From: a phage | Sequence record: OZ346212.1 | Reading direction: 5' to 3' (one strand) | DNA: 64,000 bases | In this document: in pieces, positions 30,774 through 52,904 of the stretch | How positions within the stretch are numbered: position 1 is the stretch's first letter | Layout of the letters: each line of letters begins with the position of its first letter | The notes under the pieces: generated by a model | Told to the model about the DNA's origin: nothing | The model's input: only the letters and a program-made list of their open reading frames with translations | Database searches by the model: none | Program-made: the position numbers and the translations under genes

Positions 30774-31244
30774 CTACTTAAATAGTAGTTCAAAATAGTG
30801 CAAAATTAACAGAAGTTGAACTACACCTAGTGCAACGGCGAGTATGTTAATCTTAGAATCGAAAAACTTCTTAACTTTTACTCTAAAAGGTTCCTTAATG
30901 TCCTTTACGATCCTATCTATAGATGACCTCATATCTCTGATTACCATCCTGAACATTAAAGACGGATGCTCCCCCATCTCCGTAACGGAATCGAAAACAT
31001 ACTCTCTTCGGTCATAAGGGCCGCCAGCTCTGCGTATTAACCTCTCCACAGAGACCTCGAACGTCACACCTGTAACGTAATCATCTATAACAAGTCGTGA
31101 CGGGTCTTTACCTTTACTATCAAGAGGTATCAAAGTTATCTTTCCAGATTTTGTTAAAATTTCCCCTTTTTCAAGCAAGGTGTACCAATGCTCTCTGCCA
31201 AGACTGTTGAGGCACGTTTTTACATATTTAACAAACATCGTCAC
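30774..31244 (-). CDS. hypothetical protein with C-terminal TM helix
   Basis: ORF track. Confidence 0.5.
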   Translation of the reverse strand: MTMFVKYVKTCLNSLGREHWYTLLEKGEILTKSGKITLIPLDSKGKDPSRLVIDDYVTGVTFEVSVERLIRRAGGPYDRREYVFDSVTEMGEHPSLMFRMVIRDMRSSIDRIVKDIKEPFRVKVKKFFDSKINILAVALGVVQLLLILHYFELLFK

Positions 31245-32704: not shown

Positions 32705-33103
32705 TTACTGAACAGAGCGCGGTGCTGGGAAGGATAACTCTTCTAAAGAGAAGATTTCATTTCCTACCACCCAAGTTGCTGGGTCATCTGGATCAACAGG
32801 TTGGATAATCATTACCTCATCCGCCTCGCACACACGTTTCCCACCCATAGTAGCGTCAGCCACTAACATACGCGGCTCTTCAGAAATGCACAGGTAGCCA
32901 CCTCGGCCCACTGTTCCTTCCACGGGATCCTGCCCTTTGACCACAATGAATACCTTCTCTCCTGTGGCGATATTACTTTTCACACTAACAGTTTGACCAA
33001 CTTTAGATGTACCGATCTTGGTGGCTTCAAACATTAAATCCCGAATTACTGTTGCATAGTTGCCGGACACTTTCTTACCTTCTTTAGTAATCTCAATCTT
33101 CAT
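32705..33103 (-). CDS. hypothetical protein
   Basis: ORF track. Confidence 0.5.
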   Translation of the reverse strand: MKIEITKEGKKVSGNYATVIRDLMFEATKIGTSKVGQTVSVKSNIATGEKVFIVVKGQDPVEGTVGRGGYLCISEEPRMLVADATMGGKRVCEADEVMIIQPVDPDDPATWVVGNEIFSLEELSFPAPRSVQ

Positions 33104-33339
33104 AACCTAGGCTCCTTAAATGAATCTATGTAATCAATTAAATCCCAAGCATCGCGATGGGCTGTCAGAGGGTATACTTCTCCGAGAGGGATCATAGCAA
33201 TAAGTCTATCAAAAACCCAGTCTGGACGCAACATTTTATGGTGATATTCCCACTCACCTTCCACAGATTTTTTCTGAGTGATCAGGATCTCTGTGTAGTG
33301 TTTCGCCTGTCTTGAGTAGATTGAAAATGACTTGTACAT
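33100..33339 (-). CDS. hypothetical protein
   Basis: Start moved to ATG at 33339. Confidence 0.45.
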   Translation of the reverse strand: MYKSFSIYSRQAKHYTEILITQKKSVEGEWEYHHKMLRPDWVFDRLIAMIPLGEVYPLTAHRDAWDLIDYIDSFKEPRL

Positions 33340-33374
33340 AAAGACCCCCTCTTGTTGAAAACAACAATACACAA

Positions 33375-33659
33375 CTACCAGGTTACTGTCAAGTAGGCAA
33401 CCGTATTATTTTTCTCTGGGGAGATGCCAACAACATCTACCTGCAGACCTCCTGCCCTTAAATCTCCAACAATGTGCGGGAAGTAATCTGAGAGATGCGA
33501 GGGTAGATTTATCGAAAATCCGCACCCCAGAAAGCCTGCTAACGCTTTATTTTGTATCTCCCCTACAATCGCATCATAAATGGAGTTAAGCTCGTCAGGG
33601 AGCGTTACAGGACGTTTTAGCGCTAACTGGTGTAATTTGTCCTTAGCACTCATTTTCAT
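33375..33659 (-). CDS. hypothetical protein
   Basis: Start ATG 33659 overlaps upstream TGA (ATGA). Confidence 0.5.
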   Translation of the reverse strand: MKMSAKDKLHQLALKRPVTLPDELNSIYDAIVGEIQNKALAGFLGCGFSINLPSHLSDYFPHIVGDLRAGGLQVDVVGISPEKNNTVAYLTVTW

Positions 33660-34189
33660 TTCAGGTCTACCTCTGGTGGTGCCAACCACATAAATGGCGG
33701 CAAGCCTAAACGGTTTTTCTTATCCCACACAAAATATGCATATGCTTGCCCGTCAGTTCTGCCATTTGATTGAAAAGATGGACGCTTAGATATTGTGATC
33801 ACAGTGGTAGGTGCATTATCAAGCCACCATTCAAATCTGGCTTTGCTTTCCAGAAAATTAAGACGCAAAAGCATAATAACTACGTCAGCATCTTTCAACG
33901 CCTTGTCTACAAACTCACGAGCCAAACTGTATGGTGGGTTGGTGATAATACAGTCAACATGGTTGTATTCTGTATTCAGATAGTCAACACCTTCTTGGAT
34001 TTCTCCCCATGCAGATCCTAACGGCATACGGGAGTAGAACACACCTGAGGCACTATTCCTGCAAGGCTCTAAGTAGGTCCAGTCTTCTGGGAACGGAATA
34101 AGGTCATACAGCCCTTCTGCACACCACTCCGGTGTCACATACTCATCGTAGGCGTTACGTTGTTCATCAGGTTTTCGAGCACAAGTCAT
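33656..34189 (-). CDS. DNA N6-adenine (or N4-cytosine) methyltransferase, small phage type
   Basis: Catalytic motif IV in VDCIITNPPYSLA. Confidence 0.6.
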   Translation of the reverse strand: MTCARKPDEQRNAYDEYVTPEWCAEGLYDLIPFPEDWTYLEPCRNSASGVFYSRMPLGSAWGEIQEGVDYLNTEYNHVDCIITNPPYSLAREFVDKALKDADVVIMLLRLNFLESKARFEWWLDNAPTTVITISKRPSFQSNGRTDGQAYAYFVWDKKNRLGLPPFMWLAPPEVDLK

Positions 34190-34240
34190 GCAAATCTCCA
34201 GATCATAAAAGCCCTCCGAAGAGGGCTTTAGAATTAATGT

Positions 34241-35290
34241 TTAAGCTTCTTCGACAATTCCTGCACCCAGGATTTTTTCATTGAGCTCTTTTGCTGTTTT
34301 AATAATATTGTCCACCAGACGCTTGCGAGTCTTATCTTTTACCTTAACCTCTTCACCGCCGTTCAGGGTTGTCTTCAATTGGGACAGAATGTCTTGAAGT
34401 TCAACGACAGAGAATCGCTGCAGATCTTCTGAGGTAATCTCGCCTAAGGCAATCTTAACGGTCTCACCACTTTCCATCTGCAGGTTCAGGAACACAGTGT
34501 GAACATCACCTTTCGAACCACCCGCTTTTGCAGATTCAACAGCATGAACTAGCTCATCTAAAGAGGTGCACTGGTGAATCTCCGGAAGACCTGCTTCACC
34601 TAGCACACCTTCTTCATCACCTTTTGCCAAAAGCTTTTTAGGTTTTTGTCCGTTCTGGATGCGTTGTATGTTGCCTTCATCCAGAATGATAGCTCCAGTT
34701 CGAGCTGCCAGCTCCTCTCCGTCCAACCACACTTCGCCACCCGCTGTGATGGATGCGATCTCATCTTCTGTCAGCACCCAACCGTAGTATTTTTCGATCA
34801 GGCGTTCGAAACGTTTTTTCCAGTAGCTGACCTGAGTATTCATGTTCACACCATTGCCATAAGTGCCGCCTTGATAGTAGTGGAACATAAACTCTGTGTC
34901 CGGAGCCACAGTGCGTTCTTTGCAACCCAGCCATAGGATTGTTCCAGCAGAGCAGCACATCCCTTCAGCATGTGCAACAACGCTTGCCTGAGACTCGCGG
35001 AATGCCTGTAGATAAGCCATTGCAATGTGCACGCAACCCCCAGGGCTATTGATGATCACACGAATGCTTTCTTCCGGCTGAGCCATACGGATCGTCTGCA
35101 GACGAGACATATGATCCTGCAGGTCCTCCAAATCGTCGATATAAAGAACGTGGTCAACAACAGGTGTTGGGTAGCTGTATGTTTCCATAATACCACCCGG
35201 CATACCAAACATTTTATTACTCATAGGTTCGAAACCGTTCTGTTTTTCTTTCATGCCGTGTACCATGGTTCTGCGAGGTGTTAAATTCAT
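34241..35290 (-). CDS. ClpP-family serine peptidase with C-terminal extension
   Basis: IINSPGG, GMCCSAG (Ser), MFHYYQGG (His) parallel ClpP INSPGG / GQAASMG / MIHQPLGG; ~130 extra C-terminal residues. Confidence 0.7.
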   Translation of the reverse strand: MNLTPRRTMVHGMKEKQNGFEPMSNKMFGMPGGIMETYSYPTPVVDHVLYIDDLEDLQDHMSRLQTIRMAQPEESIRVIINSPGGCVHIAMAYLQAFRESQASVVAHAEGMCCSAGTILWLGCKERTVAPDTEFMFHYYQGGTYGNGVNMNTQVSYWKKRFERLIEKYYGWVLTEDEIASITAGGEVWLDGEELAARTGAIILDEGNIQRIQNGQKPKKLLAKGDEEGVLGEAGLPEIHQCTSLDELVHAVESAKAGGSKGDVHTVFLNLQMESGETVKIALGEITSEDLQRFSVVELQDILSQLKTTLNGGEEVKVKDKTRKRLVDNIIKTAKELNEKILGAGIVEEA

Positions 35291-35350
35291 GAGAAATCCT
35301 TAATATTGGAAGTTGAAAGCTATTTATTTAAACCTGATTCACATTTACCT

Positions 35351-35662
35351 TTATTTAGCAATCACTATGGAATACTTACGATTGTCAGAAGCATCACAAC
35401 TCAATGATTGCCAGTCTACCACATACCACGTATCATTGTCAACAATTACTTTATCGCCTGTTCTGTAGCAAGTGCTGCTTTCAATAATTCGAGACTCGAT
35501 AAAGAATCTGTGTCGGCGCTCACGTAGCAACGCTAAGTTAATTATATTACCACCGCTGTCCTTGGTCCACACATTCTTGGATCCCTTATTTGCCAAAATT
35601 GTCTCGCCGTTATAGACAAACAGGCAGTATATTTTATTCAGTTTCTCTTGTATTGTAGCCAT
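35351..35662 (-). CDS. hypothetical protein
   Basis: ORF track. Confidence 0.5.
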   Translation of the reverse strand: MATIQEKLNKIYCLFVYNGETILANKGSKNVWTKDSGGNIINLALLRERRHRFFIESRIIESSTCYRTGDKVIVDNDTWYVVDWQSLSCDASDNRKYSIVIAK

Positions 35663-35763
35663 ACTGTCCTTCTCTCTGTTTTGTCCGATAATAATATCTA
35701 AAGCTTACCTATTTGTCAACAACTGTTTTAGATATTTAAGGGTGGAATAACCACCCTTCTGTA

Positions 35764-36552
35764 TTACTCGGAAACAGGGGTCCAAATATGATTTGCACGA
35801 TCCTCAATAAGATTGAGTGCGATCTGACGACCCAACCCAGAACGAACGACATCGTCTGGACTATCAAAGCTGATCATTCCAACCTCAGGATCTGGATGAC
35901 GAGTAAAGAAATCCGTCACCCATGCAAGGCCAGATTTACCAGGGATGTCACGTTGGCTATTATCACCCATAATTACAAGGGTGGCTTGATCAGAGATCCT
36001 TGTGATAATTGACAACATTTCTTCAGGGTTAGTTTGCTGTGCCTCGTCAATCAGGACAAAGCATCGCTCATCGAAACTACGACCACGAATGCTTTCAACT
36101 TCACAAATCTCGATACGGCTGTTCTGACCGTCTCCCAGCATTGCGGCAAAAGCACCTTTGCCAACACGACGACAAATCGTGTCCATCATGCTTCGAAGAT
36201 AGGGCCACAGTTTCTGCATTGCATTTCCAGGTTTAAATCCTGAAGTCTTTCCTGTCTGAACGTAAGGACGTGCAACAATAATCTTATCAATCTCGTTCTT
36301 ACGCAGAAGATCACCTGCATATGCAGATGCCATGAATGTCTTACCGGATCCAAACACACCGTTTACAATAATAATCTTACGTGACCCTAGATAATCAAGA
36401 TACTTTTGCTGCTTCTTATTCATTGGTCTGAGAGCTGGAGCGGTGTGCTCTCTTTCGTCAGCAAATTTCTCAGCAGCCTTACGCAGGCGATCAGATTTGC
36501 GAGCCTCTCTAGCTTCATCACGCATGCGTTTTGTTTCTTTAGCTCGACCCAT
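35764..36552 (-). CDS. phoH: PhoH-like ATPase
   Basis: Walker A GVFGSGKTFMA; Walker B VLIDEAQ; basic N-terminus. Confidence 0.75.
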   Translation of the reverse strand: MGRAKETKRMRDEAREARKSDRLRKAAEKFADEREHTAPALRPMNKKQQKYLDYLGSRKIIIVNGVFGSGKTFMASAYAGDLLRKNEIDKIIVARPYVQTGKTSGFKPGNAMQKLWPYLRSMMDTICRRVGKGAFAAMLGDGQNSRIEICEVESIRGRSFDERCFVLIDEAQQTNPEEMLSIITRISDQATLVIMGDNSQRDIPGKSGLAWVTDFFTRHPDPEVGMISFDSPDDVVRSGLGRQIALNLIEDRANHIWTPVSE

Positions 36553-36590
36553 GTTGGGACTCCTTTCAGATTGAGATGTGCCAAGTACTT

Positions 36591-36941
36591 TTACTGCAAC
36601 AGTTTTTCAATAGCCGCTTCCATGCTGCTTGCAACAGCCTGAACTCGGATATTCATCTCTTCTTGGTGGATCAGCTCCTTAAGCTCTTTAATGGTAAATT
36701 CTTTAGAGAAACCTTCCACCATAATCTTGTGCAAGGCTTCTTGCGTGTCTACTTGCAAGAACTTTTCCAGTTTGTTGGCAGAGGCTTCTAAATCAGCCCG
36801 AATACGAGGGTCATCTGTGCGATTCAGCATTAGGCGTAAGCCATCAAGATTAGTAGAAATAGCATCTGCATGTTGAGTAACTAACCGTGGCAAAATGAGA
36901 TCTACAAACTTATTAGCCAAATCGATACGTTCTTGTGTCAC
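36591..36941 (-). CDS. hypothetical protein
   Basis: ORF track; GTG start. Confidence 0.5.
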   Translation of the reverse strand: MTQERIDLANKFVDLILPRLVTQHADAISTNLDGLRLMLNRTDDPRIRADLEASANKLEKFLQVDTQEALHKIMVEGFSKEFTIKELKELIHQEEMNIRVQAVASSMEAAIEKLLQ

Positions 36942-37051
36942 TGTTGCACCCCCTCTTCATCTTCATGATGTTTCTTTTCACGCTTGTGTTTTTTCTTAAG
37001 CTCAAGCGCAATCTCTTTCTTGTACGCCTTCTTCAAGGCTTTTTTAGCCAT
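36938..37051 (-). CDS. small basic protein (37 aa)
   Basis: Not in ORF track; strong RBS AGAGGAGG; MAKKALKKAYKKEIALELKKKHKREKKHHEDEEGVQQ. Confidence 0.45.
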   Translation of the reverse strand: MAKKALKKAYKKEIALELKKKHKREKKHHEDEEGVQQ

Positions 37052-37113
37052 TTGGCACCTCCTCTGCTTTCATTACGGCAATTATAACCAACTCAACAAA
37101 GCTTTGTCAACAA

Positions 37114-37587
37114 CTAGTCTACCTGAACCCAACCGCCTGATACTTTTTTAAACATTCTTTGGTTATCACTGCCTCGGAACGGTTTCTTGGTTGGTAAATC
37201 TTTTACATACTTACCGTCAATGATGATATCAGCCAGTTTAATAACATCACTAGAGATATGGTCAAATGTGAACCCAGTATATACAAGAATAGTTTTCTTG
37301 TCACCAAATTTTTCCTTAATTTTCTCCATCAGGCTAATAATATCTGGCTCATTATAGTATGCTAAGGGTTCTCCACCCAGTAGAGAGATACCGCACACAG
37401 ACGGGTTATCTAAATCTGACAAGATTTTTTGCAAGTCTTCTTCAGTGAACTTCCTCCCCTTATCTTTTGACCAAAATGCCTGATTAAAGCAACCAGGGCA
37501 AGCGTGTGGGCACCCAGATACCCACAAGGCAGTTCTAATACCTGGTCCTTCGGTGTAAGATATTTCTGTGTATCCAGCAATGTTCAT
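37114..37587 (-). CDS. nrdG: anaerobic ribonucleotide reductase activating protein
   Basis: Radical-SAM cluster motif CPHACPGC. Confidence 0.8.
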   Translation of the reverse strand: MNIAGYTEISYTEGPGIRTALWVSGCPHACPGCFNQAFWSKDKGRKFTEEDLQKILSDLDNPSVCGISLLGGEPLAYYNEPDIISLMEKIKEKFGDKKTILVYTGFTFDHISSDVIKLADIIIDGKYVKDLPTKKPFRGSDNQRMFKKVSGGWVQVD

Positions 37588-37763: not shown

Positions 37764-39035
37764 TCAGCAACCACAACTTCCGTAGTGCTTAACTCGCTCG
37801 ATAACTTCCGCTTGCTTACCTTTATTGTAAGGACGGGAGTTAGGACTGGAAAGGTATCCAGACACACGTCGAATTACACTGATCGTTCCCTCTTCATGGT
37901 TTCCACACTCTGGGCATACAAAGCCTTTAGCTGTTGCACTGAACTCACCAGAGAAACCACACTTGAGACATTTATCCACAGGTTGGTTAATACCAAAATA
38001 CATAATGTGTTTATACCCGAAGTCAACAAGAGCCTCTAAAGCATCCAGGTTGTTTTTCAGGTTAGGTGTTTCTACGTATCCGATGTTGCCACCAGAGGAT
38101 ATCATAGCAAAACCTTCTTCATACTCCCACTTATCAAAAGGAGAGCTATTGATCCATACTGGCTGATGGAAACTGTTGGTGAGATATTCATGCTCGTGCT
38201 TCAACACTTCAGGATATTCACGATCCAGACAGGTTGCAGCTTTATAGCATAGACTCTCAGAAGGGGTGCCGTACAAACTAAACGCTAGTCTACTTTTCTT
38301 CTTGTATCGCTCACAAGCATCTCTCATGTGCTGAAGTATTCCAAGAGCTAAAGCCTTGTCACCCTCTCTGCCCAAAATCTGACAGGTTTCATACACACCA
38401 ATATACCCAATACTGATGGAAGCGTACCCGTCATAGAAGAGTTTATCAATACTCTCTTCAGGATCCAGGCGAGCAAGAGCGCCTTCACACCACATGATAG
38501 GGTTCTGCCCTGCCTTAGTGCCTTTCAGACGGTTAACCCTTACAAGGTGAGCTTCATATGCCAAATCCAGATACTCGTCAAGAACGGAAAAGAAATCAAC
38601 ACCTTCCGTCTTAGCTTTTGCCGCAATCATTGGCAGGTTAAGACTAACAACACCCAAGTTGAATCTGCCGAGGTATTTCTCCTCACCTGTTTCCAAGTCA
38701 TTGTATTTGCTAAGAAAACTCCGGCAACCCATGCTCGTTACTTTACCATCTGTCGAGCCTGTCACTTTACGATTTAGTGGAACAGAAACAAAGTCAGGAT
38801 AAATCCGCTCTGCAGAGCATTCCAGAGCTAATCGTTTCAAATCATAGTTAGGATCTCCAGGGTTCATGTTGACACCCTCTTCTAGGAAGAACAACACTTT
38901 AGGGAACACAGGTGTGATACGTTCTTCACCAAGACCCATTTTGTGGACTTTCAAGTAGTTTTTGGTAATCATTCTACCAAAGACTGAGGTGTCCAGACCT
39001 AAACTTAATGTGATGAATGGAGTCTGCTGTCTCCT
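37764..39035 (-). CDS. nrdD: anaerobic ribonucleotide reductase NrdD, exon 2
   Basis: Glycyl-radical motif RRVSGYL near C-terminus; frame open upstream of the track start to 39065. Confidence 0.8.
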   Translation of the reverse strand, partial: RRQQTPFITLSLGLDTSVFGRMITKNYLKVHKMGLGEERITPVFPKVLFFLEEGVNMNPGDPNYDLKRLALECSAERIYPDFVSVPLNRKVTGSTDGKVTSMGCRSFLSKYNDLETGEEKYLGRFNLGVVSLNLPMIAAKAKTEGVDFFSVLDEYLDLAYEAHLVRVNRLKGTKAGQNPIMWCEGALARLDPEESIDKLFYDGYASISIGYIGVYETCQILGREGDKALALGILQHMRDACERYKKKSRLAFSLYGTPSESLCYKAATCLDREYPEVLKHEHEYLTNSFHQPVWINSSPFDKWEYEEGFAMISSGGNIGYVETPNLKNNLDALEALVDFGYKHIMYFGINQPVDKCLKCGFSGEFSATAKGFVCPECGNHEEGTISVIRRVSGYLSSPNSRPYNKGKQAEVIERVKHYGSCGC

Positions 39036-39832
39036 CCCTGTGTTTCCACAGGGCCAGACTATCTCTTACTCTACTTCAATAAGATAATAACCCTTTATTG
39101 TGAGATGCTTACCTTCGGCATTTCCTTCGATAGCCCTATGAACGTTACCTACGTTCAAATTTAAGGCTTTTGCACAGGCATAGAGTGAAGGATATTCACC
39201 CACCAAGGTTTTACCTTTGTATGCCTGCACTTTCCTATAGCACTTACCTGGACAAAGTCCTGTTCGGAAAGCATGTCTCTTATTATCTTCCGGCAAAACC
39301 CACTCTAGGTTAGACGGATGATCATTCAATGTATTGCCATCTTTATGATTCACTTCCCAGTTTTCAGGGTCTTCTGGGACATCCGGCAAACAATACAAGG
39401 CAACAATCCTTGAGGTTTGGATTCGAATCTTTTTACCTTTGTGGTTGAAAGAGTACATATAACGGCGTTTAACATGCTTGTTACCTTTTCCATAACCTCC
39501 CCACAATATTGGGTGTAGCATTCCACGTTTTCCGTATACGTTTCCAACCTCATCAATCACATAGTTTGATTCTTCACCATTAAGAATGATCTTTTTCATA
39601 GAGCCTCTCCATTTCGAAGTTAGTATTTCAACTAACCCCTACACTACTTGGTTCAGAAATGTTTGTCAAGCATTTCTGCCTTTCGTTAGTCGTTACAACC
39701 GTTCCAACTCCTGTAAGAACTAGTCACGGGATTGGCATAGCTTTCGCCTTAGCGTTCCCCGTTAGCCGGATTTACCGACCCCTCTTATGAGGTTAGGAGA
39801 GTTTTACAACGGCCAGTTTGTTAACCGTTGAC
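39036..39832 (-). mobile_element. group I intron in nrdD
   Basis: 5' intron core contains ACGGGGAAC...CAATCCCGTG as in T4 td/nrdB/nrdD introns; ends in G before exon 2; HNH ORF inside. Confidence 0.7.
39066..39599 (-). CDS. HNH homing endonuclease (intron-encoded)
   Basis: NHKDGNTLNDHPSNLEWV; paralog of the HNH at 4085..4591. Confidence 0.8.
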   Translation of the reverse strand: MKKIILNGEESNYVIDEVGNVYGKRGMLHPILWGGYGKGNKHVKRRYMYSFNHKGKKIRIQTSRIVALYCLPDVPEDPENWEVNHKDGNTLNDHPSNLEWVLPEDNKRHAFRTGLCPGKCYRKVQAYKGKTLVGEYPSLYACAKALNLNVGNVHRAIEGNAEGKHLTIKGYYLIEVE

Positions 39833-40684
39833 AGAAGTTAACGTGTTGATTTGATAGAGCAAAGTCTGCATGCTGTCAAATACGTCTTTATCTGTCATTT
39901 GCATTGCAACAGTTTCAGCATCCGGCAACCAATGTTCCTGGCAAAATTTAAGGTTCTTCTCATAGGTTGCTTCAGCATACTGTGCCAGATAATGATCAAT
40001 ATGGCTCATAGTCTGACCACCATATTGAGCACTAGCTACCGCACTAGAGATTTGGCTAAGGATTGTTGTTGCAACCCCTATTGACTTCGGCTTACTGACA
40101 TGGGCGTTACCAATGTTGAATCCGTTTTCCAACATATCTGGATAATTTACCAAACAACAGTTTGTTAACGGACTGATCAAGTAGTCAAGATCATGCACAT
40201 GGATGAATCCTTTATTGTGCTCTTCGGAGACACGGTCTGGCAGGATCTGTGTTGATGCAAGGTGTTTGCTAAGAATACCTGCAAGCAGGTCGCGATGAGT
40301 GTGTACATGATTAGTAGGCTTATTTGCGTTTTCTTTTGTAAATTCATCACAAGTTCGATCCAAGAAGCCACTAATATCTGCAAGCAGTTTTCCACCTGCC
40401 TCTCTGTTATTATCTCTTGTCTGTCTATACTGGATGTATTCTCTGGCTGCACATTTTAAACCCATATCCATAAGAGCATCTTCAACAAGGATATGGATAT
40501 TTTTTACAGAGATCGTGCACTGGTCGGTTGGTAGATTGTTAGCAACAACTTCATTAACCGCGCAGGCGATCCGGTAAGCTTCTTCTTCAGTATGTCCAGA
40601 CTCAAGTAAGGCGGACTCTGCCGCCTTGATCACCTTAATTCCGTTATAGAACTCTTCTCTACCGTCCCGTTTTACAACTTTCAC
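39833..40684 (-). CDS. nrdD: anaerobic ribonucleotide reductase NrdD, exon 1
   Basis: N-terminal ATP-cone MKVVKRDGREEFYNGIKVIKA; exon end placed at TCT (Ser), boundary +/- a few codons. Confidence 0.8.
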
Positions 40685-47807: not shown

Positions 47808-48266
47808 TTAGAAGTTTGTTTTTACACGTCCCTTTTCATCAACCTCGTTGTTGGCTAGAAGCGTTACAAAGTCTGTGAAACGGACATGAAGAACTCTTTT
47901 CTTATCAAGGTATCCTAAAGCCACCCCTGAGAAATTTAGCATCAAAGGGGCTAAAGAAGCTCTGGCACTGAAATGCTGTTGTTCTACCCTTCCAACACCC
48001 TTAGTGTAGGATGGGTTAAGATTGTAAGTTCTGAATCCCAGTTTTGTTGGAGCTTTAGAATTAAAAACAACTTTATAGCGTTTCTTACTCAACTTATGCT
48101 CCAGGATAAGCATTCCCTTATCACCCTTGATAAGTTGAAAATCTGTAAAGTGCTCTTTTAATACGAAAGGTAGTGCCAGTCCCATCGCCTGCCCCCTTTG
48201 TACCGCTGTCTCACCAAAAGCTTTTGCATCAGTAAGTTCTTTGGTCAAGTCTATGCTTTTGATCAT
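47808..48266 (-). CDS. hypothetical protein; possible 2H-phosphoesterase fold
   Basis: Two H-x-T/S motifs (EHFTDF near residue 39, QHFSAR near residue 98); weak. Confidence 0.5.
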   Translation of the reverse strand: MIKSIDLTKELTDAKAFGETAVQRGQAMGLALPFVLKEHFTDFQLIKGDKGMLILEHKLSKKRYKVVFNSKAPTKLGFRTYNLNPSYTKGVGRVEQQHFSARASLAPLMLNFSGVALGYLDKKRVLHVRFTDFVTLLANNEVDEKGRVKTNF

Positions 48267-49047
48267 ACCTAGTCTCCAAAATGTATTGTAGTTCTTTCTT
48301 ACCTATACTCTTCATTCCGGCAGTCTTACCTGCTTCTTCTTGAAAAGAAGAATAGCATTCAGCAAACACTCTGTCAACACCGTCAACTAAAGATTTTATG
48401 AAATATGTTGATTCTTCAGATTTTGGGTCATCCTCCCCCAATACTTTTCCAGCATTATACCCAACACGTCTTACACAGAAGTCGTAGTCATCTGGAGTGC
48501 TAAAAGAAAATAACTTATTCTCCCCAATCTCTACAGGATCCCTGTTGCACGCCTTTTTCTCCCAAATTTGGAAAACACACGGCACGTCATAAGGTTTGCC
48601 ATTAAGTAGAAACGAGTTCTTAGGGCACCTTTCACTGTAGACAAGGTGCATCGACATGTCCAGTTTGTTTGCAAAAAATATTTTTTCAAATGTCCGTGGC
48701 AAGATGAAGGCTATAGCCCCTCCAAGCTCTAGCAATGATGCACAATGGTTAAAGAATTTGCAAGCTAAAGATGAATTCTTGCCAAATGGTGGGTTACCTA
48801 TGAAGACATCTGCCTTGGGATGCACCTCCAAGAAGTTTGCCTGAATGCACGGTGTTGGTCCTTCAAATTCAGGATCTGGTACTAGATCGTAAGACAGTAT
48901 CTCTGAAAATAGTTTTGAAAAAGAACCCCTTCCAGCAGAAGGCTCAACGTATGCACAATTTCCATACTTATCTTTTACTTTACCAACAAGATATTCTGCA
49001 TACTCAGGGTTTGTGTAATATTTGTCGTTGGACTCTTTCTTGCTCAA
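48229..49047 (-). CDS. DNA N6-adenine methyltransferase
   Basis: Motif I VEPSAGRGSF, motif IV FIGNPPFG; TTG start after RBS GGAGG. Confidence 0.7.
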   Translation of the reverse strand: MSKKESNDKYYTNPEYAEYLVGKVKDKYGNCAYVEPSAGRGSFSKLFSEILSYDLVPDPEFEGPTPCIQANFLEVHPKADVFIGNPPFGKNSSLACKFFNHCASLLELGGAIAFILPRTFEKIFFANKLDMSMHLVYSERCPKNSFLLNGKPYDVPCVFQIWEKKACNRDPVEIGENKLFSFSTPDDYDFCVRRVGYNAGKVLGEDDPKSEESTYFIKSLVDGVDRVFAECYSSFQEEAGKTAGMKSIGKKELQYILETRYDQKHRLDQRTY

Positions 49048-49056
49048 AGTGCCTCC

Positions 49057-49084
49057 AAAAGGAAAAGGGAGGCGCAAGCCTCCC
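49057..49084 (-). terminator. intrinsic terminator (minus strand)
   Basis: GGGAGGC-loop-GCCTCCC followed on minus strand by TTTTCCTTTT. Confidence 0.55.
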
Positions 49085-49093
49085 TATACTTGA

Positions 49094-50083
49094 TTAGATT
49101 ATCTGAATCAGGGTGTTTTTCATTTCTTCTCTGGTACGGATGTTGTTACGGTCACGAACAACAGATCCACAACCTTCGCAGCGATATGTTTTAAATGCAC
49201 TCAGTTGAGTATACGCCAAAGCTTCTTCCTCGTGAAGGTGTTCTCCACCGCAGCGTGGGCAACGAACTTTTGGCTCCTCATCCTGGTAGTACAATGACAT
49301 ATTGGGGTGCTGCTTAGCAAACGGGCGTGCCAGCAAATACAGGCCTTCCAGAGATAGGATATCACCAACATTGTACTCCCGCATCTGTTTAAACGCCTCA
49401 AGATCACCATGAACACACTTGATCCACATTTCAAATGTGTGGTCAATCAGTTTCTGTCGGGCAAGTTGGAAGTATTTGCATGCATACTCCAAAGTGTTTG
49501 CATTCAAACGGAATGCCTTCTTGATCATTTTAAGGGTGTCAACCTCTTTGTATGGGCTTGTTGGAGGCAACCCGTGAAATGCAAATCGTTGGTTTGCCCA
49601 CCCACAGTCAAAACCTGAATTGTGGGCTACTGCGACATCACATTTATCCAGATAATACCACAAGTCCTGAATCAATTCGAGGTCATTGTGAATATCCTCA
49701 TCCCACATTTTGTAATCGGGAAGAGCGCAGTCAACCACACTAGGACTGTCTAACCACTTACCTGCGAAAGTTAGCATATAGGGCATAATTTCAATACCGC
49801 AGGTTTGAATGTTGGTCTTATAGTGCCCAAAGAACCAGCCGTTTGTTGGTGATGTTTCTGTATCATACACCCAAACTTTAGCTCCTTTGTGTTCTTCAAG
49901 GAAGCGCTCAGTTGCTTCTCCTACAATCTCTGACATATTCTCTTGTGCACGTTTAAGCTGTAGTCGGATCCAACTCTCACGTGACTCACGGCCTAAAAAT
50001 TCACGAGCAATTTGTCTATTAGTGTATCCCTGCTGCTTTAGTGTTAAAATTTGCTCAAGAGTTAACTTTGTCATCATCGTCAA
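49094..50083 (-). CDS. DEDD-type 3'-5' exonuclease with N-terminal HTH and C-terminal zinc ribbon
   Basis: Exo I VYDTETS; Exo III VAHNSGFD; CPRCGG...CEGCG. Confidence 0.7.
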   Translation of the reverse strand: MTMMTKLTLEQILTLKQQGYTNRQIAREFLGRESRESWIRLQLKRAQENMSEIVGEATERFLEEHKGAKVWVYDTETSPTNGWFFGHYKTNIQTCGIEIMPYMLTFAGKWLDSPSVVDCALPDYKMWDEDIHNDLELIQDLWYYLDKCDVAVAHNSGFDCGWANQRFAFHGLPPTSPYKEVDTLKMIKKAFRLNANTLEYACKYFQLARQKLIDHTFEMWIKCVHGDLEAFKQMREYNVGDILSLEGLYLLARPFAKQHPNMSLYYQDEEPKVRCPRCGGEHLHEEEALAYTQLSAFKTYRCEGCGSVVRDRNNIRTREEMKNTLIQII

Positions 50084-50089
50084 AATTCC

Positions 50090-50311
50090 TTAGTAAAACT
50101 GAAGAATGTCTTTTAAAGCGAAGTCACGATATTCGCCCTTGTCTACATCAAAGGCATGCATCAACCACTGCTCTTCTTTATGATACTCTGTAGAGCCAAA
50201 CCATAAATTAGGCTCAGTAACGCAGCGATCTGCAACAACACCTTTCCAGTTACGGTATTTCATCCTGATCAGGACTGAGTCGCAAGGATTGAATACCTTT
50301 TTCATCCCCAT
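50090..50311 (-). CDS. hypothetical protein
   Basis: ORF track. Confidence 0.4.
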   Translation of the reverse strand: MGMKKVFNPCDSVLIRMKYRNWKGVVADRCVTEPNLWFGSTEYHKEEQWLMHAFDVDKGEYRDFALKDILQFY

Positions 50312-50855
50312 AGAAATCTCTCTCCTCAGTTTTCTTTATAAACTCCTGCATGTAGGACTCAATAGCCTCATGCTTGGTGCACTCTGGATTAATGACAAGA
50401 TTGAGATCTGATTCTGCTCGTGCAATAATCGTAGCTTTAGAGCATCTCCTCAAGAACTTTGTCATATCATCTCTGTAGTTTTTGTGGAGCGGGAAGTCGC
50501 TGTAGTCTTTCTCCAGATAGTCAGCCATCCGGCGCAACGCCTCTGATAAACTGCAATCTGTATACTCGTTACAGTATTTCATCCAGTATTTAAGCACATA
50601 CCCCTCAAAGGTATTAGTGCACTGAGACAAAACACCCCTGCAACGACCAGTCAGATGATCATGATCTAAACAAGGCTTACGAAGTGGCTCGCACAAGATC
50701 GGATCAAGACCATCCTGCTCCTCTGACAATTCTTTTCGAAAGTTGGCTATGTCCTTAGAATCTTTTAGCCACCCGCTATGAACGGGGGCTTTGACAGCTT
50801 TCTTTCTTATTTTACGCTTTGCGATAACCCCTCCAGATGCGCCCTGCCTATCCAA
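50250..50855 (-). CDS. HNH endonuclease (free-standing)
   Basis: CLDHDHLTGRCRGVLSQCTN; overlaps both neighbours, start uncertain. Confidence 0.6.
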   Translation of the reverse strand: MDRQGASGGVIAKRKIRKKAVKAPVHSGWLKDSKDIANFRKELSEEQDGLDPILCEPLRKPCLDHDHLTGRCRGVLSQCTNTFEGYVLKYWMKYCNEYTDCSLSEALRRMADYLEKDYSDFPLHKNYRDDMTKFLRRCSKATIIARAESDLNLVINPECTKHEAIESYMQEFIKKTEERDFYGDEKGIQSLRLSPDQDEIP

Positions 50856-51436
50856 TAAGCATCTGCGAGATCGGCCTTACCTTGTACCAAATTGATCCCA
50901 TCTAGGAACCCAGGTTCAGATACTTCGCAGGCCTTAACCATCAACTTTTTATCCATCGTAACAGGTTTCTTCACAGTATGCTCTTTACCTGTCTTTTTGT
51001 CAAGCTTTTTCTTCTCCTCAAAAGCAAGTTCCTCAGGAAGATGACTACGAGCAAACTTTTTGGCAGTTGTTGGTGTCACAGTGTGGACCTTAAACAGGCC
51101 GTCATTTTCACAATCAGCTAAAGCATCCCAAAGCATAACTTCAAGACCGTAAAACAACCCAGCCAGTTCGCGTGTGGCATCCCCGCGTGATCCAAAGGAA
51201 AGCCCTTCCATAACCACGGTGTCAACGCCGTGCGTGTGGATGTAATATCTGACCTGTTTGCAGATCCAGTCAATACGCTCAGCAGCTGTTGCAAAAGAAA
51301 CCGTCCCTGGTTTCTTCTCTTTTGCAGATGAGCTTTGAGTTCGTAACACAACCTTATGAACAGGCTTTCCATCGTCCCATACAACGCAAGCTGTGTGTGT
51401 CAACGACTGGTCTATGGATAATAGACGCTCTCTCAT
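50807..51436 (-). CDS. RuvC-like Holliday junction resolvase
   Basis: LSIDQSLTHTACVV (cf. RuvC GIDPG), VVMEG, DLADAYWIG. Confidence 0.65.
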   Translation of the reverse strand: MRERLLSIDQSLTHTACVVWDDGKPVHKVVLRTQSSSAKEKKPGTVSFATAAERIDWICKQVRYYIHTHGVDTVVMEGLSFGSRGDATRELAGLFYGLEVMLWDALADCENDGLFKVHTVTPTTAKKFARSHLPEELAFEEKKKLDKKTGKEHTVKKPVTMDKKLMVKACEVSEPGFLDGINLVQGKADLADAYWIGRAHLEGLSQSVK

Positions 51437-51765
51437 GCTTCCTCGTCCTCCTCTCCTTCATCAGGAGCATAAGCCTTATCTTTGAACAAGACGAGAGAGC
51501 AAAGCTTAACATCTGTTTCCACACTGGTGAACATGCATAACCGCTCGCCCTCAATCAGCTCACAATCCTCTTTTAAAACAGCAGACCATACACGGTCATC
51601 TGCGTAATCATCCGTGTACAGGATGTATGAAATGGTGTCATCTTCATACAACCGCCACATACCTGTGGCAACAACGAATGTATTTTTTGTTTTAAGTGTC
51701 CCTGTTGTGTGATCATCCTCAAAAACAGCTTCCATAATTGCGTTATCTACAGCATTTTTAGTCAT
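51433..51765 (-). CDS. hypothetical protein
   Basis: ORF track. Confidence 0.5.
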   Translation of the reverse strand: MTKNAVDNAIMEAVFEDDHTTGTLKTKNTFVVATGMWRLYEDDTISYILYTDDYADDRVWSAVLKEDCELIEGERLCMFTSVETDVKLCSLVLFKDKAYAPDEGEEDEEA

Positions 51766-52904
51766 CAGATTGCTCCAACATTTCTAAGAACGTTAACAAG
51801 TTTTGTCTGGTCATTAAATGTCCGCTTCATATACAAACAGTCAAAAATTATACTCATCCATTGACCTACGGAAATTCTACGATCAATACCATTGAAGTCA
51901 GTATACTTAACAACACCTTTCGGGAACCACTTCTTGTACTGATCAATAATAGCCACCCACATCTCCTTTGGAGTGCTGCACTGAGACAGTAGGTAGAATG
52001 CTGAGGCATCCCCGAACTTACCCTTACCGATAAGTCCTTGATACGGCTTGATGTTGTCAGCAGAGTCACCACACAGCATTTGGTATCCGAAGAACAGCAT
52101 CCCGTAACCGCCAACCTCTCCATTGGGCTTCATGAAGATGTTCCCCATACCGTTATCGATCAGCATAGGGGTTTCCCTTACAAAATCTCCCTTATCGTTT
52201 CGCATGGGATCGAACACAAGCCCCGGTAGTGTTCTTTGGTCCTTATCAATAGAGATAATAAACTTGTTGAACTTACCTGTTTTTTGGTAGTGGTTCCAAC
52301 CTTCAAATTGCTGGATAGCTAACCAGTCGTCAGCCTCGATACCGTTGATCACTTGAGCATTATACTGCTTTTGGAGATACTGTCTTGCATCTCCAAGCAG
52401 CAGTGGTCGAAGAGTATTGTTACGGTTGGCTTTATATCTTTCCGGCATGGGAAGATCTAGTCTGAAATTACCTGTGCCTCCAAGTACCCCCACGCACCGA
52501 TCTTCCGGAATACCGAGATAATTAAGGACTGCATTAGCTTTACACTTAATTGTGTGCAAGCAGTTCTCTACAGGATCAGGGGTTTGGATATCCAAGACAT
52601 CGAAATCTTCTCGTGTCCACGGAATAAACTCCTTGCCAGCCTTTTTACATGCAGCTTCACGGTTGGTATTCTCAGCTTTTAACCAACCACCAACGGTGTT
52701 CTTCTGCCGCCCCCAGAACTCTGTTCGTGTTTTAAACATCTTCTTACGTCCGGAGGCTTTGTGTGTTACCTCAATTGTCCTTTTTTCACAACTTGCTGCA
52801 GCTTGATATGCAACCTGATCGAAGTCATAATAAACTATAGCGTCAGGTTCAAGAAGATCAGCCAGACAATCTATGGACTCAATAAGTGGATATTCTCTAC
52901 TCAA
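51765..52904 (-). CDS. 5'-3' exonuclease / flap endonuclease
   Basis: GIEADDWLA and LCGDSADNIKPYQGLIGKGK match the Pol I 5'-nuclease / T4 RNase H family. Confidence 0.7.
   Translation of the reverse strand: MSREYPLIESIDCLADLLEPDAIVYYDFDQVAYQAAASCEKRTIEVTHKASGRKKMFKTRTEFWGRQKNTVGGWLKAENTNREAACKKAGKEFIPWTREDFDVLDIQTPDPVENCLHTIKCKANAVLNYLGIPEDRCVGVLGGTGNFRLDLPMPERYKANRNNTLRPLLLGDARQYLQKQYNAQVINGIEADDWLAIQQFEGWNHYQKTGKFNKFIISIDKDQRTLPGLVFDPMRNDKGDFVRETPMLIDNGMGNIFMKPNGEVGGYGMLFFGYQMLCGDSADNIKPYQGLIGKGKFGDASAFYLLSQCSTPKEMWVAIIDQYKKWFPKGVVKYTDFNGIDRRISVGQWMSIIFDCLYMKRTFNDQTKLVNVLRNVGAI

Follow-up and report, generated by a model that had tools for sequence, protein, structure and literature searches.

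Within a 64,000-nucleotide stretch of phage DNA (sequence record OZ346212.1; the whole stretch is called the window here), a minus-strand open reading frame (ORF) at 34241..35290, comprising an ATG start, 349 codons and a stop, encodes a serine protease of the ClpP fold that carries a long C-terminal extension. On balance, we favour the explanation that this protein is a cytoplasmic Ser/His peptidase, made before the late genes, that would work without an unfoldase, would carry a tethered module specific to its own family, and would have host or phage proteins as its targets without taking part in capsid maturation.

The gene itself is already known. Positions 33000-37000 of the window are 100% identical to Escherichia phage magaca (MN850612.1; Vequintavirus, rV5-like), from which coordinates were converted as window position = magaca position + 19484, and 98-99.7% identical to more than 100 further rV5-like genomes. 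More than 100 rV5-like genomes carry a named entry for an identical protein, and its family has its own PHROG, phrog_5410; in magaca it is magaca_39 (labelled "ATP-dependent protease subunit") and in rV5 it is ORF122 (labelled "ClpP ATP-dependent protease subunit"). A Shine-Dalgarno-like AAGGA element lies 6 nt 5' of the ATG. In alignments the N-terminal extension stays open in relatives but diverges, so that the annotated start is reasonable. The rV5 paper merely lists ORF122, and a literature search returned no functional study of an rV5-type ClpP-like protein, nor of ClpP-like proteins encoded in the early region of any other phage. New here are the loss of the docking pocket, the invariance of the Ser/His pair across 26 relatives, the family-only module, the separate XkdF-type capsid protease and the early-region placement.

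Fold and active site

Pfam CLP_protease (PF00574) was matched at E = 2.3e-12 (47.6 bits, above the cutoff of 20.2), phrog_5410 ("ATP-dependent protease") at E = 7.7e-155 (residues 24-345 on positions 4-322 of the 323-position profile) and the phrog_1827 profile at 1.3e-39. The top PDB sequence matches were ClpP without exception. In an AlphaFold2 (AF2) model based on 26 homologues, residues 46-213 form a core with a predicted local distance difference test score (pLDDT) of ~90, in which the handle helix (150-169) is present. When the PDB was searched with Foldseek, the 50 best matches were all ClpP chains (TM scores of 0.67-0.71, target-normalised, over 160-176 aligned columns), and the ClpP matches included chains from ClpX-bound complexes. 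The resemblance to ClpP is far beyond chance.

The motif IINSPGG occupies residues 79-85, GMCCSAG residues 110-116 (Ser114 codon 34949-34951) and MFHYYQGG residues 135-142 (His137 codon 34880-34882). An earlier note on this DNA, made from the letters alone, had described a ClpP-fold protein of 349 residues with these motifs in ClpP spacing and a long charged C-terminal part. Pfam, AF2 and Foldseek agree with the first part of that description, and the C-terminal part proved to be 136 residues long and 31% charged. The note had named unconserved catalytic residues as grounds for refuting it; in the alignment Ser114 and His137 are invariant in 26/26 family members and in six more distant phage homologues. 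Because of this invariance the protein is very probably an active ClpP-fold serine protease. Ahead of the core, residues 1-22 are variable and residues 23-45 hold a conserved FG.PG...YSYP motif (F28, G29, Y40, P41), which is predicted by AF2 to be disordered in the monomer.

Loss of ClpP-specific residues

For residue mapping, E. coli ClpP served as the reference sequence. Between the Asn of INSPGG and the catalytic Ser the two proteins align without gaps (33 residues in each), so that ClpP residues can be mapped with some confidence; P115-H122 of E. coli ClpP aligns with P130-H137. The mapped positions are given in Table 1. All seven hydrophobic positions of the pocket into which ClpX/ClpA insert their IGF/LGF loops are polar or small in the phage protein, and the family keeps the substituted residues. 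Polar residues also prevail at the IGF-pocket sites of the short homologues (ICP1, Pakpunavirus, Otagovirus, T5-like). Because both the hydrophobic pocket and the Arg170 sensor are replaced by conserved other residues, independence from ClpX and ClpA appears rather probable from the alignment. The third position of the catalytic triad is Glu or Gln, so that the enzyme would effectively be a dyad.

Profile scores place the protein in the same way. The NCBIfam ClpP equivalog TIGR00493 gave 33.2 bits against a cutoff of 308.6, the PRK ClpP models likewise fell short of their cutoffs, and true ClpP models scored 33-39 bits against the protein. The best curated model, NF045542 ("head maturation protease, ClpP-related"), gave 60.3 bits against a cutoff of 120. 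Since the cutoffs of TIGR00493 and NF045542 were both missed, the sequence places the protein in the ClpP fold superfamily but qualifies it neither as an orthologue of ClpP nor as a head-maturation protease of a recognised kind.

These results bear on the alternative that the protein is a canonical ClpP tetradecamer driven by host ClpX/ClpA, or that it co-assembles with host ClpP, and so redirects ATP-dependent proteolysis. In its favour, the protein passes the Pfam CLP_protease threshold, conserves the Ser/His pair, has genuine ClpP structures as its best matches, some of them ClpX-bound, and shows a handle helix in the model. Against it stand the conserved replacement of the whole pocket, the deletion of L48/F49, the change of Arg170 to Gly and the TIGR00493 score; in addition, no phage-encoded AAA+ unfoldase is present in the annotation of the regions inspected. 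Only lipopolysaccharide genes, and no clp genes, came out of a Keio screen with the V5-like phage LL12 (PMC7229145), which is a weak argument as the phage gene is perhaps dispensable in the laboratory. We consider the canonical alternative unlikely, and the database name "ATP-dependent protease subunit" is probably misleading.

The C-terminal extension

The extension comprises residues 214-349 and is net acidic (pI 5.15). Its charged linker, with one short helix (244-257), leads into a conserved module of ~85 residues, set at 263-343 by the family alignment and the model, that is modelled by AF2 as a β-hairpin (267-281) and two helices (295-309 and 322-342), and in which F293, E297 and R322 are invariant in the family alignment. 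Searched on its own, the module matched positions 222-322 of phrog_5410 at 6.7e-31 and no Pfam family, and a profile search of the PDB gave zero matches. A search of BFVD gave one significant match, a protein of 303 residues with 20% identity which, judging by its length alone, we count as belonging to the family. When 1.84 billion representative proteins were searched by profile, the module turned up in just five clusters, every one of the rV5-type family. As far as these sequence searches reach, the module is an orphan domain confined to the phrog_5410-type family. Certrevirus CR8 keeps a divergent copy (E = 7.6e-6, a tiny-database value from a search of six sequences). The extension of ICP1 gp211 was considered as a further copy and rejected: its layout is alike, but there is no detectable sequence similarity. 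The module likewise showed no similarity to head-module proteins or to known scaffolds.

Capsid maturation and virion content

The earlier note had raised the possibility of a prohead protease fused to a scaffold. Fusion to a capsid-targeting domain was considered along with it, in either case with a gene that lies apart from the head genes. Phage λ C/Nu3 is a precedent for a protease-scaffold fusion. Some of the data would suit this idea: the next-best profiles are head-maturation families (phrog_1684 at 3.9e-21, then phrog_94, phrog_2976 and phrog_133), NF045542 reaches 60 bits, the protease gene shares its transcription unit with at least one gene for a virion protein (the rV5 gp133 homologue), and the C-terminus closes in a helix-loop-helix in the AF2 model.

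The phage has another protease for the task. The head module of magaca (47984-52473 in magaca coordinates, outside the window) encodes, in order, a portal (phrog_113), a 139-residue protease, a 325-residue protein, a decoration protein and the major capsid protein, and lies ~34 kb from the ClpP-like gene, which is located among nrd, PhoH and methyltransferase genes. The 139-residue protein that follows the portal (magaca_93) matches the XkdF-type Pfam family Peptidase_S78_2 (8.7e-18, 65 bits against a cutoff of 24); it is 59% identical to a Certrevirus "prohead core protein protease" and ~40% identical to an ICP1 protein annotated "capsid protease". We infer that the 325-residue protein next to it is the scaffold. 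Although it is labelled "head stabilization/decoration protein", a scaffold is more likely because the CB7 protein of the same VOG (VOG1355) has low coverage in virions and because the rV5 counterpart by position, gp62, is outside the six identified virion proteins. In many rV5-like records the XkdF-type protease, which together with the 325-residue protein occupies magaca 49608-51004, is labelled "hypothetical", "DNA methyltransferase" or "DNA-binding protein".

Published virion analyses and the ICP1 gene order were compared with this arrangement. Tandem mass spectrometry of virions of the Certrevirus CB7 identified 26 proteins, which include the protease of the head module (CB7_5) and the VOG1355 protein but no ClpP-like protein (PMC7344957). 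In rV5 virions only gp52, 53, 60, 61, 64 and 133 were found by mass spectrometry, and gp122 was undetected (PMC3606486). The predicted capsid protease of ICP1, gp125, is encoded within the late capsid operon gp122-126 (PMC7567579), whereas the ICP1 homologue of the ClpP-like protein, gp211, comes last in the block of nucleotide-metabolism genes gp176-gp211. Within that block a subset of genes peaks at 12 min, before the late genes (PMC7567579); the peak refers to that subset and not to gp211 individually. Taken with the missed NF045542 cutoff and the dissimilarity of the C-terminal module to head-module proteins, these observations leave the protease-scaffold fusion of the earlier note very improbable. 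The ClpP-like protein is in all likelihood not the capsid protease.

A different role in the particle would be that of a low-copy protease packaged in the virion and possibly injected, acting as soon as the next infection begins. The Clp protease ORF45 of the T5-like phage BF23, of which the function is given as "currently unknown", was traced in purified virions by 3 peptides of low intensity (PMC10644984). The same preparation also held dihydrofolate reductase, so that carry-over is possible, and the protein is unseen in rV5 or CB7 virions. The predicted σ70 promoter (Table 1) favours fresh synthesis in each infection, as does the timing of the ICP1 block within the limit stated above for gp211. 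Packaging is therefore improbable as the explanation.

Genomic placement and pairing with PhoH

The annotation of the cluster around the protease gene contains no head genes, which bears out the placement given in the earlier note (in the early region, outside a head-gene cluster). The note had further put the gene between PhoH and a methyltransferase; both do flank it, but a 103-residue ORF separates it from PhoH. In annotations inspected for 11 lineages, early or DNA-metabolism genes surround the ClpP-like gene in all 11, and it is never found between portal and capsid genes. A PhoH gene on the same strand directly precedes it, with 0-3 small ORFs in the gap, in three genera of Vequintavirinae (Vequintavirus, Mydovirus and Certrevirus) and in ICP1, Otagovirus, the Acinetobacter phage Phab24 and Barbavirus, and the two genes overlap in phiPsa267. 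The adjacency also appears in the gene table of Alteromonas phage V22 (PMC7289586), which brings the total to 8/12 lineages (the 11 inspected annotations plus V22 by its gene table only). It is absent from the inspected annotations of Pakpunavirus, T5-like, Schizo-T4-like and N4-like phages. A DNA methyltransferase gene follows directly downstream in Vequintavirinae and Barbavirus. The pairing of PhoH with the ClpP-like gene passes without comment in the papers cited here.

This same-strand adjacency, and the overlap in phiPsa267, could point to the upstream PhoH-like ATPase as a functional partner of the protease, for example in the delivery or remodelling of substrates. PhoH-family ATPases are associated with the metabolism of RNA and are not known for unfolding proteins. 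PhoH is found in 3,057 phage records and the ClpP-like gene in 941, and in the T5-like phages the two lie ~30 kb apart (an estimate from the records of two different T5-like Klebsiella phages). With the further lineages in which the genes are not adjacent, these numbers make the coupling highly doubtful. Because PhoH is far commoner and the T5-like phages separate the genes, the adjacency may be inherited synteny among related myoviruses and not a sign of functional coupling. A combined version, in which a self-contained protease with a polar surface in place of the ClpX dock has its substrates selected by the orphan module, by the PhoH-like ATPase or by both, also seems quite improbable to us; if true, PhoH and the ClpP-like protein would be an unrecognised ATPase-protease pair for host takeover or counter-defence in many virulent phages.

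Proposed mode of action

In the explanation that we prefer, a host-type σ70 promoter would drive synthesis of the protein ahead of the late genes, alongside nucleotide-metabolism genes. Catalysis would be carried out by the Ser114/His137 pair and would proceed without a ClpX/ClpA-type unfoldase. The ~85-residue module would be tethered through a flexible acidic linker of ~50 residues and might serve as a built-in element for partner recognition, substrate recognition or gating, a role that we put forward tentatively. The targets of the enzyme would be proteins of the host or the phage in the infected cytoplasm, with capsid maturation left to the separate XkdF-type protease of the head module. 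The substrates, like the oligomeric state, the independence from an ATPase and the role of the C-terminal module, are matters on which we can only infer.

Several points weigh against this explanation. The loss of the IGF pocket is read from an alignment at ~20% identity and not from an oligomer structure. The pre-late timing is an extrapolation, based on ICP1 and on a predicted promoter, and no expression-timing data for a Vequintavirus were found. The rV5 virion proteome is shallow, and virion proteomes describe mature particles and not procapsids. The traces of BF23 ORF45 in virions count on the same side. The literature searched holds no experiments on a magaca_39-type protein or its close relatives.

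Neighbouring features and annotation

The positions of the features are collected in Table 1.

Table 1. Features of the ClpP-like protease locus in the window, with the residues of the phage protein that align with selected residues of E. coli ClpP.
Feature	Position	Strand	Basis or remark
ClpP-like serine protease gene	34241..35290	-	ORF list, MN850612.1 identity, Pfam CLP_protease, phrog_5410
Residues 1-45	35156..35290	-	Alignment; AF2 pLDDT <50 for 1-43
ClpP-fold core, residues 46-213	34652..35155	-	AF2, Foldseek, residue mapping
Charged linker, residues 214-262	34505..34651	-	Low pLDDT; column identity 0.25-0.28 across family
Family-specific C-terminal module, residues 263-349	34244..34504	-	
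E. coli ClpP Y60: R77			Alignment
E. coli ClpP Y62: I79			I/V in family
E. coli ClpP F82: E99			
E. coli ClpP I90: H107			
E. coli ClpP M92: E109			
E. coli ClpP F112: T127			
E. coli ClpP L114: A129			A/S in family
E. coli ClpP L48, F49: missing			Within 5-residue deletion
E. coli ClpP R170 (ring sensor): G185			Invariant
E. coli ClpP D171 (catalytic Asp): E186			Glu in rV5-like phages; Gln in most relatives
Putative N6-adenine DNA methyltransferase gene, NPPY motif	33656..34189	-	Annotation
Terminator-like hairpin AAAGCCCUC-UUCG-GAGGGCUUU then UAUGAU	34208..34229	-	Protease stop to methyltransferase start
103-residue ORF, rV5 ORF121 homologue, phrog_5456 (unknown function)	35351..35662	-	Between PhoH and protease genes
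σ70 promoter-like TTGACA-17-TATTAT, 11/12 positions	35691..35719	-	5' of 103-residue ORF; promoter scan
PhoH-like P-loop ATPase gene	35764..36552	-	PF02562 at 3.6e-47; synteny

The promoter-like site corresponds to P121 annotated in rV5, and the 103-residue ORF that follows it is probably in the same transcription unit as the protease gene. A 12/12 match to the σ70 consensus (TTGACA-18-TATAAT) lies at 37081-37110 on the minus strand, 5' of the small ORFs that precede PhoH, and equals rV5 P118. The T4-late-like rV5 motif TGGTAAAATA has a single copy with one mismatch at 35543-35552 (minus strand), within the 103-residue ORF; it was considered as a late promoter for the protease gene and found unconvincing, being a mismatched copy inside the upstream ORF. 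The hairpin between the protease and methyltransferase genes has a 9-bp GC-rich stem and a UUCG loop (RNA fold -16.2 kcal/mol, z = -1.87); it was not reported by a consensus terminator scan, and there is weak support for a terminator. The putative methyltransferase scored 20.0 and 19.2 bits against Pfam Dam and EcoRI_methylase, under the cutoffs of 26.4 and 28.1, respectively.

Other observations concern the wider region and its records. At 30774-31244 (minus strand) lies the homologue of rV5 gp133, as part of an early/middle transcription unit that is remote from the structural module; gp133 is reported among the predominant rV5 virion proteins, and the magaca homologue is labelled just "putative structural protein". 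The anaerobic ribonucleotide reductase gene nrdD is split into two ORFs, with the parts among 37764-38972, 39066-39599 and 39821-40684 (all minus strand) and an HNH homing-endonuclease gene between the halves, whereas rV5 nrdD is a single uninterrupted ORF of 2124 nt (ORF112); the split looks like a homing-endonuclease or intron insertion particular to the lineage of this isolate. Two magaca labels are probable mis-annotations: magaca_44 ("putative minor capsid protein", 37114-37587, minus strand) is rV5 ORF117 NrdG and has the radical-SAM CxxxCxxC motif (CPHACPGC), and magaca_40 ("PhoH-like protein") is the 103-residue phrog_5456 protein of Table 1, which has neither a PhoH nor another Pfam match. 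Nineteen GenBank "Campylobacter phage" records (e.g. MG065635 and MG065653) are ~98.5% identical to positions 33000-37000, and their labels probably reflect a wrong host or contaminated preparations.

Significance and comparison with known systems

Nothing in these findings would greatly surprise a specialist. The protease is conserved, catalytically intact by its sequence and common to phages that are therapeutic candidates (rV5-like, ICP1, Pakpunavirus and T5-like). Its substrates, if identified, could expose a step of host takeover or anti-defence common to unrelated virulent phages, and could also give the enigmatic phage PhoH a functional context.

With bacterial ClpP (MEROPS S14; E. coli ClpP, PDB entries 1TYF and 6WR2), the phage protein has in common the α/β fold, the handle helix, INSPGG and the Ser/His spacing, but the identity is just 18-24%. 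It is without the IGF-pocket residues, the L48/F49 segment, Arg170 and Asp171, the N-terminal gating region is swapped for another conserved motif, and the 136-residue C-terminal extension is added. The head-maturation proteases (NF045542 and phrog_1684, phrog_94, phrog_2976 and phrog_133) supply the closest curated profile outside the phrog_5410-type family. They are ATPase-independent enzymes of the ClpP fold, some with C-terminal fusions (cf. NF045540 for fusions of a protease to a scaffold or capsid protein), whereas magaca_39 is encoded outside the head module, has a C-terminal module unrelated to scaffold or capsid proteins and is undetected in virions. The short "Clp proteases" of phrog_1827 (the ICP1 gp211 core, T5/BF23 ORF45, Pakpunavirus, Otagovirus, Barbavirus and Phab24) have the same protease core as magaca_39, which is 36% identical to ICP1 gp211. 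They have likewise lost the IGF-pocket hydrophobics and share the early/nucleotide-metabolism placement, often right after PhoH. They are mostly of 180-245 residues and lack the C-terminal module; ICP1 gp211, at 326 residues, has an extension.

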